From Chitinophaga pinensis (GTDB lineage: Bacteria; Bacteroidota; Bacteroidia; SXHM01), in assembly GCA_945861685.1 (NCBI GenBank), contig CAMAVO010000003.1, positions 1-49,313 on the forward strand: a stretch of 49,313 nt of DNA, in the 5' to 3' direction. The notes beneath the pieces were generated by a model. The model saw only the letters and a program-made list of their open reading frames with translations, was not told where the DNA came from and made no database searches. Below, piece after piece: positions 12,425-44,970 of this stretch. The translations under genes and the position numbers were made by a program. The first letter of the stretch is position 1. Every line of letters begins with the position of its first letter.

Positions 12425-12870
12425 GTTTTTTCTCTTCCGGAGTTTTCGCTGCCTCTTGCAGCGGTGTTGCTCCCACTTGCAAAGGTTTTGTTGTCTCCTG
12501 CAGGACTGTTGCTGCCTCTTGCAGAGCTTTTGTTGTCTCTTGCAAGACTGTTGTTCCTTCTTGCAGAGGTGTGTGCGTCTCTTGCAGGACTTTTGCTCCC
12601 TCTTGCGGAGGTGTTGCTGCCTCTTGCAGAGGTGTGAGTGCCTCTTGCAAGACTGTTGTTGCCTCTTGCAGCGGTGTTGCTCCCTCTTGCGGTACTTACA
12701 GCATTAATTGCATAGCAATTGGTGTTAATTGCGGCACAGTGAGTGTTAATTGTAGAGATGTTGCTCCCTCTTGCAGGACTGTGAGCGCCTCTTGCAGCGC
12801 TGTGAGTATGGGTTTATTGGGTAATAATGTCAGTTTATGGGGTGTTTTGTGCCTAATTGGCAGAAAACTG
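12425..12870. repeat. Degenerate 21-bp tandem array, about 18 units with core CTCTTGCA plus a degenerate tail
   Basis: Core recurs every 21 bp from 12432 to 12789 without phase slip. Three TAATTG variants at 12705, 12726 and 12747. A 24-bp exact repeat occurs at 12451 and 12661. Confidence 0.92.
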
Positions 12871-18545: not shown

Positions 18546-20645
18546 ATGTCCATTCTACAAAAAATCAGAGAAAAAACTTATTTAGCACTTATATTCGTTG
18601 GGCTTGGTATTGCCCTGTTTGTTATTGATCCCAGCTCTATTTTCAGCAGCTCGCAGCGTGGTGAAACCCATGTTGGTATTATTGCCGGTGAAAAAATTGA
18701 AGGACAGGATTTTGAACTGAAAGTTCAGGAGGCTATTGAAAACTACAAAGCCAACTATCAGCAGGCTAATATTGACGAGGCTACCAAAGAAGCTATCCGC
18801 AACCAGACCTGGGACCAGCAAATTCAGGAAATAGTAATGGGAAGCCAGCACGAAGAACTTGGGCTAACCGTTAGCGCTGAAGAATTGTTTGACATGATTC
18901 AGGGGCCAAACCCAAGCCCGCAGGTGCGCCAGGCTTTTGGCAATCCGCAAACAGGGGAGTTTAATCCTGCCAACGTAATTGCTTTCCTTAAAAGAATGGA
19001 CGAAGACGAAACGGGCGACACCAAAAAGCGCTGGTTGGCTTTTGAAAAGGACATGAAAAAGCAACAGGTTTACACCAAATACAACACGCTTGTAAAAAAA
19101 GGTCTTTACATTACTACTGCCGAGGCTAAAGCCGATAACGCAGCTAAAAACAAAATGGCAAACGTTCGTTTTGTGGCTAAGCGTTATGCTGCTTCAACCG
19201 ACACTACAGTTAAAGTTACCGATGCAGAGATAAAATCATATTATGCAGCCAACAACTACAAAGAGCAATACAAACAGGACGAAGCCGTTGACCTTAAATA
19301 TGTAGCTTTTGACATCAAACCTTCTGATGACGATAATCAGGCTGCAAAAAAATGGATAGATAAAACCACTGAAGAATTTAAACTCACCGATAACGATACC
19401 TTGTTTATCAATATCAATTCAGATAAGCCTTATGCAGCAATGTGGTACGCTGAATCAGCACTTCCTGCTGCTGTTGATACCCTTAAAAAAGCTGTGGTTG
19501 GAACTGTTGCAGGTCCTTATCTGGAAAATGAAAGCTGGAAAGTGTCTAAGCTTCTGGGAACTAAAATGGCTGTTGACTCAGTTAAAGCCCGCCATATTCT
19601 TTTGAAAGTGGAAGGCGGAAATGCGGAGCTTGTAAAAGCTAAAGCCGACAGTCTTAAAAAAGTAATAAAAGCAAAAAATAATTTTGCCGAATTGGCTAAA
19701 GTTCTCTCAACCGATGCCGGTTCAGGCGCGCAGGGTGGCGACCTTGGCTGGTTCAAAGAAGGTGTTATGGTTCCTGAATTTAACAATGCCTGCTTCAATG
19801 GCAAAAAAGGAGATATGACGGTTGTTGAATCACAATTTGGTATTCACCTGATTGAGATACTGGACAGAAGCAAAGAATCACGCAAGCTTAACATCGCAAC
19901 AGTGGAGCGCCTGACCGAGCCAAGCGATAAAACCTTCCAGAACATTTATTCTAAAGCAAGCGATTTTTCTACTAAAAACCGCACGCTCGAAGCATTTGAA
20001 GCTGCCGCAACCGAAGGTGGATACAATGTGCGTATTGCCGCAAACATTAAACCGATGGAAGGCAAAGTTGCCGGACTTGATAATCCCCGCCCTATTATCC
20101 AGTGGGCTTACAACACGGCTAAAAAAGGTGATGTATCGGAGGTATATGAAGTAGGCAACAAATATGTAGTAGTGGTATTAGCCGAGAAATACGAGAAAGG
20201 TGTTAAACCACTTGAAACCATTAAAGAAGAGTTGGAAGCCGAGGTGCGTAAAGAAAAGAAAGCAGAACAGTTCATCAAAGAATTTGAAGCCGCTCTTGCA
20301 GGAAACCCTGCTATTGACGCTCTTGCCGGTAAAATGAATGCACCGGTTGAAACGGCACAAAACGTAGTATTCAGCGCAGGCTCCATACCGGGAATGGGTA
20401 AAGAGCCTGAAGTATTGGGTACTATTGCTGCATTGAAAGCTGCCACAGCTTCTAAACCGGTAAAAGGTTTATCAGGGGTGTATGTAGTGTATGTTGACAA
20501 CGTGGTGGAAGCTCCCGAAGTAACCGATTTTGCTCCCGCTAAAAAACAATTAGCACAAACCCTTGCTTCACGTGCCGATTACGAAGTGTACGAAGCATTG
20601 AAAGACAAAGCGGAGGTAAAAGATAACCGCGTGAAGTTTTATTAA
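18546..20645 (+). CDS. PpiD-like membrane-anchored chaperone / parvulin PPIase with SurA-type N-terminal domain
   Basis: MSILQKIRE plus TM; ARHILL, GGDLGWF, MVPEFN and SQFGIHLI motifs. Confidence 0.88.
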   Translation: MSILQKIREKTYLALIFVGLGIALFVIDPSSIFSSSQRGETHVGIIAGEKIEGQDFELKVQEAIENYKANYQQANIDEATKEAIRNQTWDQQIQEIVMGSQHEELGLTVSAEELFDMIQGPNPSPQVRQAFGNPQTGEFNPANVIAFLKRMDEDETGDTKKRWLAFEKDMKKQQVYTKYNTLVKKGLYITTAEAKADNAAKNKMANVRFVAKRYAASTDTTVKVTDAEIKSYYAANNYKEQYKQDEAVDLKYVAFDIKPSDDDNQAAKKWIDKTTEEFKLTDNDTLFININSDKPYAAMWYAESALPAAVDTLKKAVVGTVAGPYLENESWKVSKLLGTKMAVDSVKARHILLKVEGGNAELVKAKADSLKKVIKAKNNFAELAKVLSTDAGSGAQGGDLGWFKEGVMVPEFNNACFNGKKGDMTVVESQFGIHLIEILDRSKESRKLNIATVERLTEPSDKTFQNIYSKASDFSTKNRTLEAFEAAATEGGYNVRIAANIKPMEGKVAGLDNPRPIIQWAYNTAKKGDVSEVYEVGNKYVVVVLAEKYEKGVKPLETIKEELEAEVRKEKKAEQFIKEFEAALAGNPAIDALAGKMNAPVETAQNVVFSAGSIPGMGKEPEVLGTIAALKAATASKPVKGLSGVYVVYVDNVVEAPEVTDFAPAKKQLAQTLASRADYEVYEALKDKAEVKDNRVKFY

Positions 20646-20669
20646 GCAACTTCTCAAAACTGAATAAAG

Positions 20670-20696
20670 AAACCCGCTTCATGCGGGTTTTTTTTT
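20670..20696 (+). terminator. Intrinsic terminator of the PpiD-like gene
   Basis: AAACCCGC-ttcat-GCGGGTTT followed by a T run. Confidence 0.85.
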
Positions 20697-20728
20697 GCCT
20701 TTTCAATACAAAATGTTGGTTGGGTGTC

Positions 20729-20954
20729 ACACAGACGCGTGTGTTGGGTCAAAAAACATTATTTAGTATCACACAGGCACGTGTGTTGCCTTAAATACCC
20801 TTATTGAATGCAACACAGGCTCGTGTGTCGGACAAAATAGCATGTTTGTATATAACACAGAAACCTGTGTTTGACAGAATAGCAGTATTTAATATAACAC
20901 ACGTGCCTGTGTGATACTAAAGAGGCTTCTTGATAGTAACACAGATGCCTGTGT
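20729..20954. repeat. Array of six 16-bp palindromes ACACA-N6-TGTGT at an exact 42-bp period with 26-bp dissimilar spacers
   Basis: Units start at 20729, 20771, 20813, 20855, 20897 and 20939. Perfect 26-bp inverted repeat at 20762-20787 / 20896-20921. Confidence 0.93.
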
Positions 20955-21014
20955 TACATCCAATAGAATTCAGCATCTAAACTTCCGTATCCGGATAACA
21001 CTCAATTGTCTTCT

Positions 21015-22280
21015 TCACCTCAACAACTGCATCCTGTACGCATCCAGTTTAATAAACACAAACAGCAGAATAGTAAACGCCCACAGCGATGAGCCTCCGT
21101 AGCTGAAAAAGGGAAGGGGAATACCGATAACGGGGGCAAGTCCTATGGTCATGGCAATGTTTACCGCAAAGTGAAAGAACAGAATAGAAGCCACCCCGTA
21201 GCCATAGATGCGTGTAAAGGTCGATTTCTGTCGCTCGGCTACATAAATAATGCGCACTAATAAAAACAGGAACAACACAATCACCACAAAGGCGCCCATA
21301 AAACCCCACTCTTCGCCCACGGTGCAAAAAATAAAGTCGGTGCTTTGCTCGGGCACAAACTTGTATTTGGTTTGCGTACCGTTTAAAAAACCCTTGCCTG
21401 TAAAGCCGCCCGAGCCAATGGCAATTTTACTCTGGTTCACGTTATAGCCAACGCCTTTCGGGTCATCTTCCTTGCCCAGCATAACATTGATACGCGTTTT
21501 CTGATGTATCTCCAGCACATTGTCAACCACATACCCCACGCTGTATGACATACCCGAAAACACCACCGCAGTGCCGCCAATAAGCAGCGCATTTTTCCAG
21601 TTGCGTTTGCCCGCAATAAAGATGAGAAAAGCAATTACGCCCACAATCCACATCATCGTCTTGGGGTCAAACAGCAGCGTAACAATAAACACCAAAACCA
21701 CCGCCACACCCGCCATCAAAAAGTTTCCCGATAAGCCTTCGCGATACAGCACAAACAAAAAAGCCCCGTAAACCAATGCCGAACCCGTATCGTTCTGCAA
21801 CAGAATAAGCAGGGCAGGGGCGGCAATAAAAGCAGCCGTAATCAGTTTGGTTTTATTGTCCTCAAACTTAATGTTCATGGTGCTCAGATATTTGGCAACC
21901 ACCAGCGCAGTGGCAAATTTCCCGAACTCGGCCGGCTGTATCCTGAAGTTGCTGCCAATCTCAAACCACGATTTGCTTCCCGAAACCTCGCGCCCGAAAA
22001 CCAATACCAATATAAGCAGCAGCATCACCAACCCGTAAACAGGATAGGCCGAAATGGTATAAAATTTTCCGTCAATCAGCAGAATAACCGCAGCAATAAA
22101 AATGGAACTGCCTATCCAGATCAACTGCTTGCCATAGTTTTCCGAAGTGTCGAGAATACTTTTGTGCTCCTCGTTATACACGGCAGCATAAATACTTATC
22201 CAGCCCAGGAAAATCATTACCAGAAAGATGGAAACCATCACCCAGTCTATGTTATCGAATATGGAGGTTTGTTTTCTCAT
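21015..22280 (-). CDS. rodA: Rod shape-determining protein RodA (SEDS family)
   Basis: IQPAEFGK, SKIAIGSGG, PEQSTDFIF and PFFSYGGSS motifs; follows mrdA. Confidence 0.95.
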   Translation of the reverse strand: MRKQTSIFDNIDWVMVSIFLVMIFLGWISIYAAVYNEEHKSILDTSENYGKQLIWIGSSIFIAAVILLIDGKFYTISAYPVYGLVMLLLILVLVFGREVSGSKSWFEIGSNFRIQPAEFGKFATALVVAKYLSTMNIKFEDNKTKLITAAFIAAPALLILLQNDTGSALVYGAFLFVLYREGLSGNFLMAGVAVVLVFIVTLLFDPKTMMWIVGVIAFLIFIAGKRNWKNALLIGGTAVVFSGMSYSVGYVVDNVLEIHQKTRINVMLGKEDDPKGVGYNVNQSKIAIGSGGFTGKGFLNGTQTKYKFVPEQSTDFIFCTVGEEWGFMGAFVVIVLFLFLLVRIIYVAERQKSTFTRIYGYGVASILFFHFAVNIAMTIGLAPVIGIPLPFFSYGGSSLWAFTILLFVFIKLDAYRMQLLR

Positions 22281-22290
22281 TCTGTTTTCC

Positions 22291-22360
22291 CGTCATTGCG
22301 AGCCATAGCGAAGCAATCTCTCAATAAGTTTGCTTCGGGTGAAAAACCCTCGCAATGACG
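22291..22360. repeat. REP-like nested inverted repeat (GTCATTGCGAG...CTCGCAATGAC type)
   Basis: Perfect 12-bp outer arms at 22291-22302 / 22349-22360; inner CGAAGCAA/TTGCTTCG pair. Confidence 0.82.
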
Positions 22361-22402
22361 AACTATCTTTATACTGTTAATCGTTTCCATTGAGTGAATC
22401 AT

Positions 22403-24250
22403 TTAATCAATTGATGTTTCTTTTTTAGCAACAGGTTTCTCAACCGGCTTCGGCATCAGGTTGGCATTCAAAATAAATTCTTCTACCAAAGGTCGTCTTA
22501 AACTATCGGTCAGGTATTTTTCAATCAGCAAACTGGCAATAGGTGCAGCATAGGTTCCGCCCTTCCCTGAATTTTCAACAAATACCGCCAATGCAATCTT
22601 GGGATTGTCTTTGGGCGCGAAACACACAAACACCGAGTGATCCTCACCATGCGGGTTTTGTGCCGTTCCTGTTTTTCCGCAATACGGTATGCCTTTCAGT
22701 TTCGAGCGCGCTGCCGTTCCTGCTTCAACAACCTGTTCCATTCCGTCAATCACCAGTTGAAAATAACCGCTATCAATAGTGGTGTAGTTGCGGGTGGTAA
22801 ATTCGTTCTCAATTTTTTTAGCACCAATCTGTTTCACCAGATGGGGCGGATAATAAAAGCCACGGTTGGCAAGCGTAGCCACAAGATTAGCCAATTGCAG
22901 CGGAGTAGTTCCCAACTCGCCCTGTCCTATACTTAACGAAACAACGGTCAAAGATTTCCAGCGGCTCTTGCCATAAATCTTATCGTAATAATCACCCGTT
23001 GGAATTAATCCTTTCAACTCGCTCGGTAAATCGGTGTTGAACTTTTTCCCGAAACCAAAACTCAAAACGTGTTTACGCCACACATCATATCCTTCGCGCA
23101 CCGATTTTTTGCTGTCGAGGATATTGCGGTAAACGTTGCAGTAATAAGCATTGCACGAGTGCTGCACCGATTGCAGCAAATTAAGTGGAGAAGGATGCTG
23201 GTGACAACCCACATGAATTGGTCCGGCAGAATAACCCATTCTGCAACCATAAGTTGTTTGCGGAAACACCACTTTCTCCTGTTGTCCGATAAGATTGTTA
23301 ACCAACTTAAATGTTGAGCCGGGCGGATACTGTGCCATCAGTGCGCGGTTAAACAATGGCTTGAATTCGTCTTTAGACATCAGCGAATAATTGGCAGAAC
23401 GCACTCTGCCCACTAACAAATTAGGGTCGTAAGTAGGACTTGTGGCAAGCACTAAAATCTCTCCTGTGCTGGGCTCTATCGCCACCACGCTGCCGATTTT
23501 ATTTTGCATCAGCTTTTCGGCATACGCCTGCAACTCACCGTCAATAGTGGAAATAAGGTCAAGCCCCGAAACGGGCAGCTTGTCGTACTCACCGTTTTTA
23601 AAACTTCCTTTCGGAACATTTTTTACATCCACCATCATCACCTTGTCGCCTTTTTGTCCACGCAGATATTCCTCGTAATATTTCTCAATGCCACTCACAC
23701 CAATGTAATCACCCGACTTGTAATACACATTATCCTTGGTCATGCGCTCGTCAACCTCGCCTACATAACCCAGCAAGTGTGCAGCCACCCTGCTCGGATA
23801 CTTGCGCAGCGTGCGGGTTTGCGTAAAAAATCCTTTATAGTGATGCAGCTTCTCCTGCAGCATGGCATAAAACTCAGACGACAATTGTTTCTCAAAAACA
23901 GAAGGCTTGTGTTTAGAGTAGTCCGTTATTTTTTGCATCCGCTGCTTAAAATCTTCTACCGTAATACCAAGCGTGTTGCAGAAATCCAGCGTATCTAAAT
24001 CATCCACCTGTTTTGGAATTACCATCAAATCATAATACGCTTCGTTATAAACAAGCAACTTGCCGTTGCGGTCGTAAACCAGGCCCCGCGCAGGATATTC
24101 AGTCATGTGGCGCAACACATTATTCTCTGCCGAAAGTTTATAGCTGTCGTCAAGCACCTGCAAAAAAAACAGGCGGATAAGAAAAATAATTCCCGTGATA
24201 ACAATCACGCCACCGATGAGAAGCTTACGGTCGGAATAGCGTAAATCCAT
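22403..24250 (-). CDS. mrdA: Penicillin-binding protein 2
   Basis: PARGLVYDRNG, YPPGSTFK, SCN and KTGTAQ motifs; within the mre cluster. Confidence 0.95.
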   Translation of the reverse strand: MDLRYSDRKLLIGGVIVITGIIFLIRLFFLQVLDDSYKLSAENNVLRHMTEYPARGLVYDRNGKLLVYNEAYYDLMVIPKQVDDLDTLDFCNTLGITVEDFKQRMQKITDYSKHKPSVFEKQLSSEFYAMLQEKLHHYKGFFTQTRTLRKYPSRVAAHLLGYVGEVDERMTKDNVYYKSGDYIGVSGIEKYYEEYLRGQKGDKVMMVDVKNVPKGSFKNGEYDKLPVSGLDLISTIDGELQAYAEKLMQNKIGSVVAIEPSTGEILVLATSPTYDPNLLVGRVRSANYSLMSKDEFKPLFNRALMAQYPPGSTFKLVNNLIGQQEKVVFPQTTYGCRMGYSAGPIHVGCHQHPSPLNLLQSVQHSCNAYYCNVYRNILDSKKSVREGYDVWRKHVLSFGFGKKFNTDLPSELKGLIPTGDYYDKIYGKSRWKSLTVVSLSIGQGELGTTPLQLANLVATLANRGFYYPPHLVKQIGAKKIENEFTTRNYTTIDSGYFQLVIDGMEQVVEAGTAARSKLKGIPYCGKTGTAQNPHGEDHSVFVCFAPKDNPKIALAVFVENSGKGGTYAAPIASLLIEKYLTDSLRRPLVEEFILNANLMPKPVEKPVAKKETSID

Positions 24251-44615: not shown

Positions 44616-44635
44616 GGTTTAGGTTTATTTTTAGG

Positions 44636-44904
44636 TTGTCCGCAAATATAATGCAATTGTCCGAAGATATTACTTAGTTGTCCGCTAAAATTATATAGTT
44701 GTCCGTAAAATTTACTTAGTTGTCTATTAAAATTACTTGATTGACCGCAAAAATGATAGTTATTATTTTTGCGGTCAGCTACGTTATCTTTGCGGACAAC
44801 ACAGAAATAATTGCGGACAACACAGAAGTAATTGCGGACAACACAGAAGTGATTGCTCCCACCCAAGTAAATAGAGCGGACAACACAGAAAATAGTGCGG
44901 ACAA
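44636..44904. repeat. Mirror-symmetric 21-bp-period array: six TTGTCCGC-type units, central hairpin, seven GCGGACAA-type positions
   Basis: Left cores at 44636, 44657, 44678, 44699, 44720, 44741. Right cores at 44771, 44792, 44813, 44834, (44855 degenerate), 44876, 44897. Central 13-bp stem TGACCGCAAAAAT/ATTTTTGCGGTCA. Confidence 0.93.
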
Positions 44905-44970
44905 CGCAGAAAAATGCTGTTTTTTGATGAAATTGGGGCTAAACAGGAGTGTTTAGAGTTTAAGGAAGGC

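Follow-up and report, generated by a model that had tools for sequence, protein, structure and literature searches.

Operators of the NarL family follow a '7-2-7' arrangement of inverted heptamers, and the sopC locus of the F plasmid is made of 12 x 43-bp units, in each of which SopB binds a 16-bp inverted repeat. Bacteria carry tandem repeats whose size is constant (20-21 nt, some 40-41) while their sequence varies, and these have been called "enigmatic" (Subirana & Messeguer, IJMS 2021, PMC8161180); their two-turn length was remarked upon, and protein polymerisation on DNA or small RNAs were proposed as their roles (PMC8161180). Such fixed-length, variable-sequence repeats have been catalogued in many bacteria with neither a partner nor a function. 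Here we describe an array of six ACACA-N6-TGTGT palindromes in contig CAMAVO010000003.1 of an assembly assigned to Chitinophaga pinensis (GCA_945861685.1, G000 below); the whole 49,313-bp stretch analysed is referred to as the window. By sequence comparison, the array is one copy of a small family of ~290-bp non-coding elements from one freshwater Bacteroidota lineage. We tentatively propose, at a probability of about 0.4, that it is a set of phased operators for a dimeric GerE/LuxR-type helix-turn-helix (HTH) protein, and that the window copy is bound in trans.

The pattern ACACA-N6-TGTGT occurred exactly six times in the window, all matches lying 42 bp apart, against a chance expectation of 0.12, and six matches were reached in 0 of 100 dinucleotide shuffles. 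This bore out the first-pass annotation, which had been made from the letters of the window and had reported six palindromes at an exact 42-bp period (20729-20954). Across the whole assembly (3.04 Mb in 259 contigs, 88% complete), the same search returned seven matches, six of which were the window array. A repeat finder resolved the array into 109-nt inverted arms (20720-20828 and 20855-20963) that were 72% complementary about a dyad at 20841/20842, and the 42-nt units, linkers included, were 62-76% identical to one another. The annotation had also described a flip of orientation in the middle of the array, which held for whole units, with the dyad where it had been placed, whereas the orientation of cores 4 and 6 proved ambiguous; a sister element has a forward site that matches site 4 in all but one base. 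Its 'dissimilar spacers' did not survive the comparison, because the linkers mirror each other and, at this level of unit identity, are really diverged copies. No open reading frame (ORF) of at least 40 aa spanned the window array, and stops were present in all six frames.

BLAST and alignment identified a ~290-bp element, made of six 42-bp units and a conserved end motif, as the unit of inheritance. BLAST found three copies in this genome (the window copy on contig C3, C11:13900-14140 and C34:2927-3215) and three in the sister species G003 (C7, C30 and C4), and the metagenome contig L100 carried an ortholog of the G003 C7 copy. The locus, for which a search of related genomes had been suggested, is therefore not unique but belongs to a family present in related genomes. 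The neighbouring genes differed from copy to copy and the intergenic sites were non-syntenic. When these seven copies (three from this genome, three from G003 and L100) were aligned (alignment A1), the end motif TGGTTG.GT.TC was invariant in 7/7, and every site in every copy was a 7-2-7 palindrome of the form A-xyz-ACG-NN-CGT-zyx-T, with an A/T-rich linker in each unit. The arm triplets occupy positions 2-4 and 13-15 of each 16-bp site: four copies have CAC/GTG, C11 has GTA/TAC, and both C34 and G003 C4 have ATG/CAT. We call these copy types ACAC (to which the window copy belongs), GTAA (C11) and ATGA (C34 and G003 C4). Among the six sites of one copy, arm identity was 1.0 for the ACAC type, 0.89 for GTAA and 0.56-0.59 for ATGA. 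Between types, identity was 0.14 in the arms compared to 0.81 in the ACG..CGT centre.

Within the local palindromes, 71% of the alignment cells paired and 29 of 66 pairs had changed on both sides, giving a covariation of 0.348 versus 0.138 in shuffles; none of 500 shuffles reached the observed value, and slid controls were far lower. Over 257 columns x 7 copies, the alignment contained a single gap, its mean column identity being 66%; the 42-bp period was exact in every aligned copy, and the count of six units was fixed in 7/7. The linkers behaved differently from the palindromes. Although 58% of the mirrored linker positions paired, versus 36-43% when slid, their covariation lay below that of all shuffles (500/500 higher), which spoke against long-range pairing being kept up between the mirrored linkers; we take the mirror for the trace of an old inverted duplication and not for a long helix that is being maintained.

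The C34 and G003 C4 copies were 92% identical over 316 bp. Compared in 100-bp windows, the element scored 92, 97 and 88% and the adjoining cytochrome-like gene averaged about 88%, and the homology stopped just beyond the element. A conserved terminator-like hairpin lies directly 3′ of the C34-type element (L183:3225-3262 in G000:C34, and G003:C4 ~139735-139775), where no gene ends. At the window locus itself, a DNA contig from another study (X4) showed zero differences across 20552-20950, and an 869-nt strain contig from another study (X8), which differed 29 times and had no indel, carried all six units; 26 of its differences were listed, 2 of them in 20696-21077 and 23 in 20240-20695. Judged from these sequences, the element matches coding DNA in its conservation and has hardly any indels. 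The spacer between ppiD and rodA, in which the window copy lies, was short and array-free in G005, with one small hairpin (TGTGTCGG-N8-CCGACACA); it held a different ~60/120-bp palindromic tandem repeat in G004 (C8:58774-59390, L166) and 2.9-4 kb of other DNA in G002 and G003. This variation across the genus indicates that over longer times the element is mobile or replaceable.

A candidate partner was found beside the sister copies. G003 C7, L100 and G000 C11 each had an ORF of ~90 aa immediately upstream of the array and on its strand (P0122 at G003 C7; L176:2910-3188, minus strand, at G000 C11), and a gene of a second family, P0001, lay directly 3′ of these three orthologous arrays. The ~90-aa proteins of G003 and L100, both adjoining ACAC-type arrays, were 81% identical; those of G000 and G003, whose arrays differ in arm type, were only 32% identical, compared to 91% for P0001 at the same loci. 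A family hidden Markov model recovered three more paralogs in loci already fetched (G002 C5, G002 C1 and G003 C24), each followed by an array about 85-100 nt past its stop codon; the periods were, respectively, 42 bp in about 11 units, 42/21 bp in 4.8 units and 63 bp in 5.9 units. An array thus lay directly downstream in 6/7 HTH loci, and only about 220 nt of contig was left in the seventh (G005). The first-pass annotation had seen no regulator nearby, which is correct for the window copy and fails for the sister arrays that adjoin this small GerE/LuxR-type gene.

The HTH family is rare: a search of 1.84 billion proteins yielded 10 representatives at E ≤ 1e-3. Pfam GerE scored over its curated cut-off in 3/12 members and below the cut-off in 3 more, and gave nothing even at E ≤ 10 in the two members adjoining W-type arrays; a profile search against PDB sequences returned only weak matches to DosR, DegU and GerE (E 0.7-1.4). 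The AlphaFold model, built on a five-row alignment, had a low confidence (pLDDT 63), and its top Foldseek matches were all LuxR/GerE domains: GerE (1fse_D), RhlR, LiaR, VraR, DegU, DosR and the NarL-DNA complex 1je8. The match of this pLDDT 63 model to GerE 1fse_D had a TM score of 0.82 by target and a root-mean-square deviation of 2.1 Å over 65 residues. A homodimer model scored 0.88, compared to 0.00 for the best of three controls; its runs shared at least 98% of contacts with a partner pLDDT of at least 91, and the predicted symmetric interface was formed by helix 54-68 (the fourth helix) and the C-terminus. A score of 0.88 was reached by 20/30 proteins solved as pairs and 1/23 solved as single chains; since GerE-family dimers have already been solved, this result may reflect likeness to them. 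The models thus point to the ~90-aa family as a candidate fast-evolving GerE/LuxR-type HTH protein, predicted to form a dimer. A weak HTH-like match at C6 was rejected as an extracytoplasmic function (ECF) sigma factor beside a coding repeat. That 42/84-bp repeat (G000:C6:30429-30737; L211 630-938) sits inside a long open frame directly 3′ of the ECF sigma-factor gene and is probably a coding repeat, perhaps of an anti-sigma-like protein.

The second family, P0001 (L018:8836-9810), is restricted to Bacteroidota, has members of 311-333 aa, and is predicted to consist of a helical bundle and a beta sandwich. The arrays of G001 C98 and of L056, whose P0001 homolog is only 48% identical, likewise stood directly 5′ of such a gene. 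In G000 the family has members at C11:12870-13841, C175:4-825, C48:2070-2714 and C204:312-1133, and 4/5 further paralogs examined had 42-bp arrays of 5.7-6.8 units upstream, each with another palindrome. P0001 paralogs nearly always had an array of about six units directly upstream, with a period of 41/42 bp or three times that. The association of arrays with the two gene families, HTH and P0001, is non-random. The 324-aa P0001 itself had no match in Pfam, PHROG, NCBIfam or PDB sequences and matched only hypothetical proteins in the Atlas; the best query TM score of its AlphaFold model (pLDDT 85) in Foldseek was ≤ 0.24, chance-level rows to large toxin-complex subunits included. We dropped P0001 as a binder, since domain, sequence and fold searches gave no functional clue. 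A protein with HU-DNA_bdg and DUF4469 domains was likewise rejected, as this family was not found in 6/6 genomes of the order. Such a gene does stand directly 3′ of two Parabacteroides loci (P. segnis and P. goldsteinii; L032:5371-5455 and L034:4870-4995), where two to three 26-bp palindromes with the core ACACAGG-TA-CCTGTGT recur at a 42-bp period and alternate with a second palindrome. The near-identity of these palindromes to those of the element had suggested this binder.

The 42-bp period of the element is part of a genome-wide regularity. Tandem Repeats Finder (TRF) returned 271 non-overlapping arrays in the whole assembly, and their periods piled up at 21 bp (54 arrays), 42 bp (18), 63 bp (9) and 84 bp (8), while neighbouring periods were rare: 20 bp (3), 22 bp (2) and 43 bp (0). 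Most of the 42-bp arrays (15/18) and about half of the 21-bp arrays (28/54) lay outside any open frame of at least 150 aa. The unit sequences of these arrays with periods in multiples of 21 bp (21n) were unrelated, many consisting of a palindrome and an A-tract. A pile-up at 21n that falls largely outside open frames points to the helical phase of DNA. The window itself holds four further 21- or 42-bp tandem arrays of unrelated sequence (12448-12690, 12767-12806, 44635-44735 and 44790-44912), and one of these four is made of 11.6 copies of the 21-bp unit GCTGCCTCTTGCAGAGGTGTT.

We favour the reading that the element acts at the DNA level, as six operator-like docking sites. Homodimeric GerE/LuxR-type proteins would occupy these sites and build a multi-dimer nucleoprotein stretch of about 250 bp; palindromes exactly four helical turns apart all lie on one face of the duplex. 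The window copy would be bound in trans, perhaps as a secondary target, a decoy or a roadblock at the end of two convergent operons, and its location would suit a roadblock or insulator between them. Five features argue for this reading, drawn from sequence and from modelling: the strict helical phase and the 21n quantum across the genome, the 7-2-7 symmetry of the sites, arms that agree within a copy and differ between copies, the joint divergence of protein and arms, and the predicted dimer. Symmetric, element-wide changes of the arms are what a change in the specificity of a homodimer predicts. Phased sites for a dimeric protein had been one of three hypotheses of the first-pass annotation, and of the three it fits best, given the 7-2-7 form, the spacing and the HTH adjacency; the binding it assumed is an extrapolation from these. 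The reading thus joins observed features (the anatomy of the array, the family, arm covariation, spacing constraint, conservation and gene-array adjacency) to a predicted GerE-type fold and dimer.

Several points weigh against it. Protein binding to the sites, its reach to the window copy and its effect are what we infer. A single clear HTH family member, at C11 beside the GTAA-type array, was found in this 88%-complete genome, so that no cognate is identified for the window copy (ACAC type) or for C34 (ATGA type). The covariation between protein and arms rests on two arm types only, and compensatory changes in the arms fit a hairpin equally well. Sites spaced 42 bp apart would keep small dimers from touching one another directly, short of a bend or wrap in the DNA. 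Linker identity was 0.54 at homologous positions between types and 0.43-0.61 between positions within a copy, and so failed to tell homologous positions from others. At the P0001 loci (G003 C7, L100 and G000 C11), the array lies 30-50 nt before a start codon and keeps one open sense frame, as a structured or translated leader might. In three HTH-paralog loci (L197 ~1390, L200 ~1400 and L201 ~1410), the promoter-like motif CGTTCTTTGAAT directly precedes the array, after a hairpin, so the arrays may be transcribed. Finally, 21n arrays far outnumber HTH genes; the module cannot therefore explain every 21n array. On our reading, the motif CGTTCTTTGAAT resembles a Bacteroidota-type promoter. At G000:C187:4262 it also abuts a 21-bp array of 18.8 copies (C187:3855-4248), and a divergently oriented XRE-type HTH gene lies some 130 bp away from that array.

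A wider generalisation, which we consider doubtful, would make 21n repeats, at least in this Bacteroidota lineage, the cognate docking arrays of stand-alone ~90-aa GerE-type HTH dimers, whose family would be diversifying rapidly. The HTH gene, the promoter-like motif and the array would then form a module in which the specificities of protein and site co-evolve, the quantum would be set by dimers stacking on one DNA face, and orphan copies, the window array among them, would be trans-targets that extend the reach of each module.

Among the alternatives, we judge a structured RNA unlikely. The element would then be a 5′ leader, a 3′ untranslated region or a stand-alone transcript that forms six tandem hairpins or one long one and serves, for example, as a protein sponge, a stabiliser or terminator, or a leader coupled to translation. 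Each unit can form a hairpin, and a single strand of the whole element would fold back on itself as one long hairpin (-112 and -118 kcal/mol; z -10.6 and -12.2); covarying arms around a conserved apical ACG-NN-CGT are the usual pattern of RNA hairpins. The motif CGTTCTTTGAAT in front of the three paralog arrays, the terminator-like hairpin after the C34 copy (L183 3225-3262), the placement of the P0001-locus arrays just before a start codon, and the lack of a terminator between the rodA stop and the window array would all suit a transcript. However, an RNA leaves unexplained both the genome-wide 21-nt quantum across unrelated sequences and the fact that all six stems of a copy share the same arm letters, which differ between copies. 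The mirrored linkers, moreover, pair without the covariation expected of a helix (500/500 shuffles higher), and Rfam searched over 19500-22500 at E up to 10 gave only sub-threshold chance matches, with nothing meaningful on the array. Contigs from RNA libraries of two runs covered ppiD only (20229-20420 and 20450-20645) and not the array; being contigs only, they are neutral evidence. A functionless or selfish satellite, which we also hold to be improbable, would be a hairpin-prone minisatellite or a MITE-like repeat (MITE, for miniature inverted-repeat transposable element) that spreads, lacks a dedicated partner and is shaped by slippage and template switching, with palindromy and mirror as footprints of the mechanism. 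It would account for copies at non-syntenic intergenic sites among unrelated neighbours, for the differing content of the ppiD-rodA spacer among G002, G003, G004 and G005, for the homogeneous and longer arrays of G001 (about 7-11 units), as after recent amplification, for a 3+3 mirror that records common descent without covariation, and for the perfect 26-nt inverted repeat, which looks like a recent conversion. Set against this are conservation equal to or above that of neighbouring coding DNA, very few strain differences in the array, almost no indels over seven diverged copies, six units in 7/7 of them, and the non-random association with two gene families. Such a satellite, shaped by template switching, fits the conservation and the scarcity of indels poorly.

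Two further explanations are far less probable than these. Sites for a tyrosine or serine recombinase, with inverted arms around a short asymmetric core and with the flips as inversion products, had been another hypothesis of the annotation and are now very improbable. Read more widely, the palindrome has arms of 10 bp flanking 6 bp (ATGCAACACA-N6-TGTGTTGCAT), and core orientation differs between units, both as such sites would have it; the ACG-NN-CGT centre presumably resembles the Bacteroides Mpi invertase consensus, for which a literature check found nothing. Yet DNA contigs of two independent studies contained neither joints nor rearranged forms, a weak argument given that contigs drop rare variants, no recombinase gene was seen beside any copy examined, and a crossover site does not need six sites at a fixed helical phase. 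Less probable still is a coding repeat, in which the units of 42 bp would code for a protein of 14-residue repeats, or the window copy would be a dead version of such a gene. Sister frames are indeed open: the P0001-locus arrays of G003 C7, L100 and G000 C11 carry a 112-118-aa sense frame from MRQ(G/S)MQ, and G001 C43 is open in one sense frame. The window, C34, G003 C30 and G003 C4 copies nevertheless have stops in all six frames, the palindrome of G001 C98 stands in a different reading frame, and it is the palindromy of the DNA that is conserved, not the peptide. A conserved 14-aa-repeat protein in relatives, which the annotation had named as an outcome that would speak against its view, did not emerge: differences between G003 C7 and L100 fell 17/19/19 over the codon positions and bore no coding signature.

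The order sampled comprised six genomes of one genus (G000-G005). The exact two-site pattern marked two arrays in G001, of about 7-11 homogeneous units with linkers nearly identical from unit to unit, and two arrays of six units in G003; it was absent from G002 and G004, and all that G005 showed was one chance pair with a different spacing. Compared to BLAST and alignment, searching by pattern misses part of the element family. The G001 C98 array runs straight into a (TC)n microsatellite at its end (L017:1287-1310). Outside the genus, two sites 11-41 nt apart were found in 0/393 sampled genomes of the class, a count that does not test the 42-bp period independently. When one genome per species was scanned, 20 stretches came back, 4 of them from G001 and G003; three were 42-bp arrays in other uncultured Bacteroidota (L020, L021 and L024), and the rest comprised one Ignavibacteria array (L037), the two Parabacteroides loci, pairs resembling repetitive extragenic palindromes (REP), and coding or other repeats. 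REP-like perfect palindromes on an ACACA...TGTGT core, some of them headed by GTAG, were seen in L022 and L035 (Daejeonella), L023, L025 and L038 (Mucilaginibacter), and L027 and L028 (a Solibacter metagenome-assembled genome), as pairs or loose clusters without a 42-bp phase. Metagenomes gave at least 115 stretches, mostly AC/GT-rich low-complexity DNA; L050, L056, L061, L078, L089, L100 and L132 were family-like among the matches listed. Viral contigs gave five stretches matching the pattern.

The features of the window locus are collected in Table 1. Sequence, ORFs and Pfam agree with the annotation's placement of the array behind the ppiD terminator and between convergent genes; a PBP2 gene comes next after rodA.

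Table 1. Features of the array and its surroundings (coordinates in the window)
Feature	Coordinates	Strand	Basis or remark
ppiD-like gene (SurA_N + PPIC rotamase), upstream flank	18546..20645	+	ORF, Pfam
Intrinsic terminator of ppiD (GC stem + T run)	20670..20697	+	sequence, inverted repeat
Conserved left-end motif of the element, AAAATG..GGTTGGGTGTC	20710..20728	.	common to sister copies
Element proper	20715..20963	.	six 42-bp units, imperfect 3+3 mirror about 20841/20842
Palindromic site 1	20729..20744	.	ACACAGACGCGTGTGT
Perfect 26-nt inverted repeat	arms 20762..20787 + 20896..20921	.	holds sites 2 and 5
Palindromic site 2	20771..20786	.	ACACAGGCACGTGTGT
Palindromic site 3	20813..20828	.	pattern search
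Palindromic site 4	20855..20870	.	pattern search
Palindromic site 5	20897..20912	.	exact reverse complement of site 2
Palindromic site 6	20939..20954	.	pattern search
rodA/ftsW-family gene, convergent downstream flank	21015..22280	-	ORF, Pfam; stop 60 nt from site 6

Compared with known systems, the array is not a CRISPR-like one, since its linkers are homologous among themselves and across copies and its units are 62-76% alike. This homology, to each other and to the spacers of other copies, also removes the processed repeat-spacer RNA that had been the annotation's remaining hypothesis, and the comparison it had called for, of the spacers with phage and plasmid collections, gave no blastn match at E ≤ 0.01. 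Repeats of the ToxI kind, from type III toxin-antitoxin systems, were rejected as well: the flanks converge in the window, which leaves no gene downstream of the array, and the genes downstream of other copies are mutually unrelated.

The sites come closest in form to GerE/LuxR/NarL operators, being 16-bp palindromes of two heptamers and a 2-bp centre, and the models place a small, predicted GerE-fold protein beside the sister arrays. Inverted half-sites of the size and symmetry of a dimer operator were present in 7/7 copies, and a cognate GerE-family gene accompanied the sites at 6/7 HTH loci and not at the window copy. Known operators of this group, however, occur singly or paired in promoters, whereas here six stand at a strict 42-bp phase and their binding would follow by analogy; nor are the known ones dispersed between convergent genes or known to swap arm specificity copy by copy. 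Like sopC, whose palindromes serve a dimeric protein, the window array consists of tandem ~42-43-bp units with a 16-bp palindrome in each. Unlike sopC, no copy has parA/parB-type genes beside it, there are no plasmid or phage matches, and the neighbours are housekeeping genes. The canonical 16-bp parS consensus is matched perfectly at two places elsewhere in the genome, 193 bp apart (G000:C1:17385 and 17578), which makes the array unlikely as the main chromosomal centromere. REP, BIME and REPIN sequences and the BrickBuilt minisatellite-MITE of Porphyromonas gingivalis (PMC4596501) are, as far as the published descriptions at hand go, also extragenic palindromes, often found after terminators between convergent genes and sometimes in alternating clusters; by the same descriptions they number tens to hundreds per genome, compared to three copies here, which come without singletons and with a strict phase and unit count.

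The constant-size repeats are the class to which the array belongs by its 42-bp period, its non-coding nature and the presence of many unrelated arrays of the same length in the genome. With that class, as described in the part of the account at hand (PMC8161180), this genome shares many unrelated, species-specific non-coding arrays built on one two-turn quantum. Set against the same part of the account, what differs here is the 42-bp unit, the 7-2-7 palindrome, the count of six, the 3+3 mirror, the dispersed ~290-bp element and the type-specific arms, together with a GerE-type gene beside the sister copies, where that part of the account names no partner protein (PMC8161180). The locus makes the question of partner and function testable, as it supplies a defined element, evidence of constraint, and a concrete candidate partner that diverges where the arms diverge. 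If such arrays are indeed docking platforms, they would offer a route to their role between genes, be it as roadblock, insulator, decoy or nucleoid anchor. The window array is thus a new, well-structured form within a known, unexplained class of period-locked bacterial repeats.

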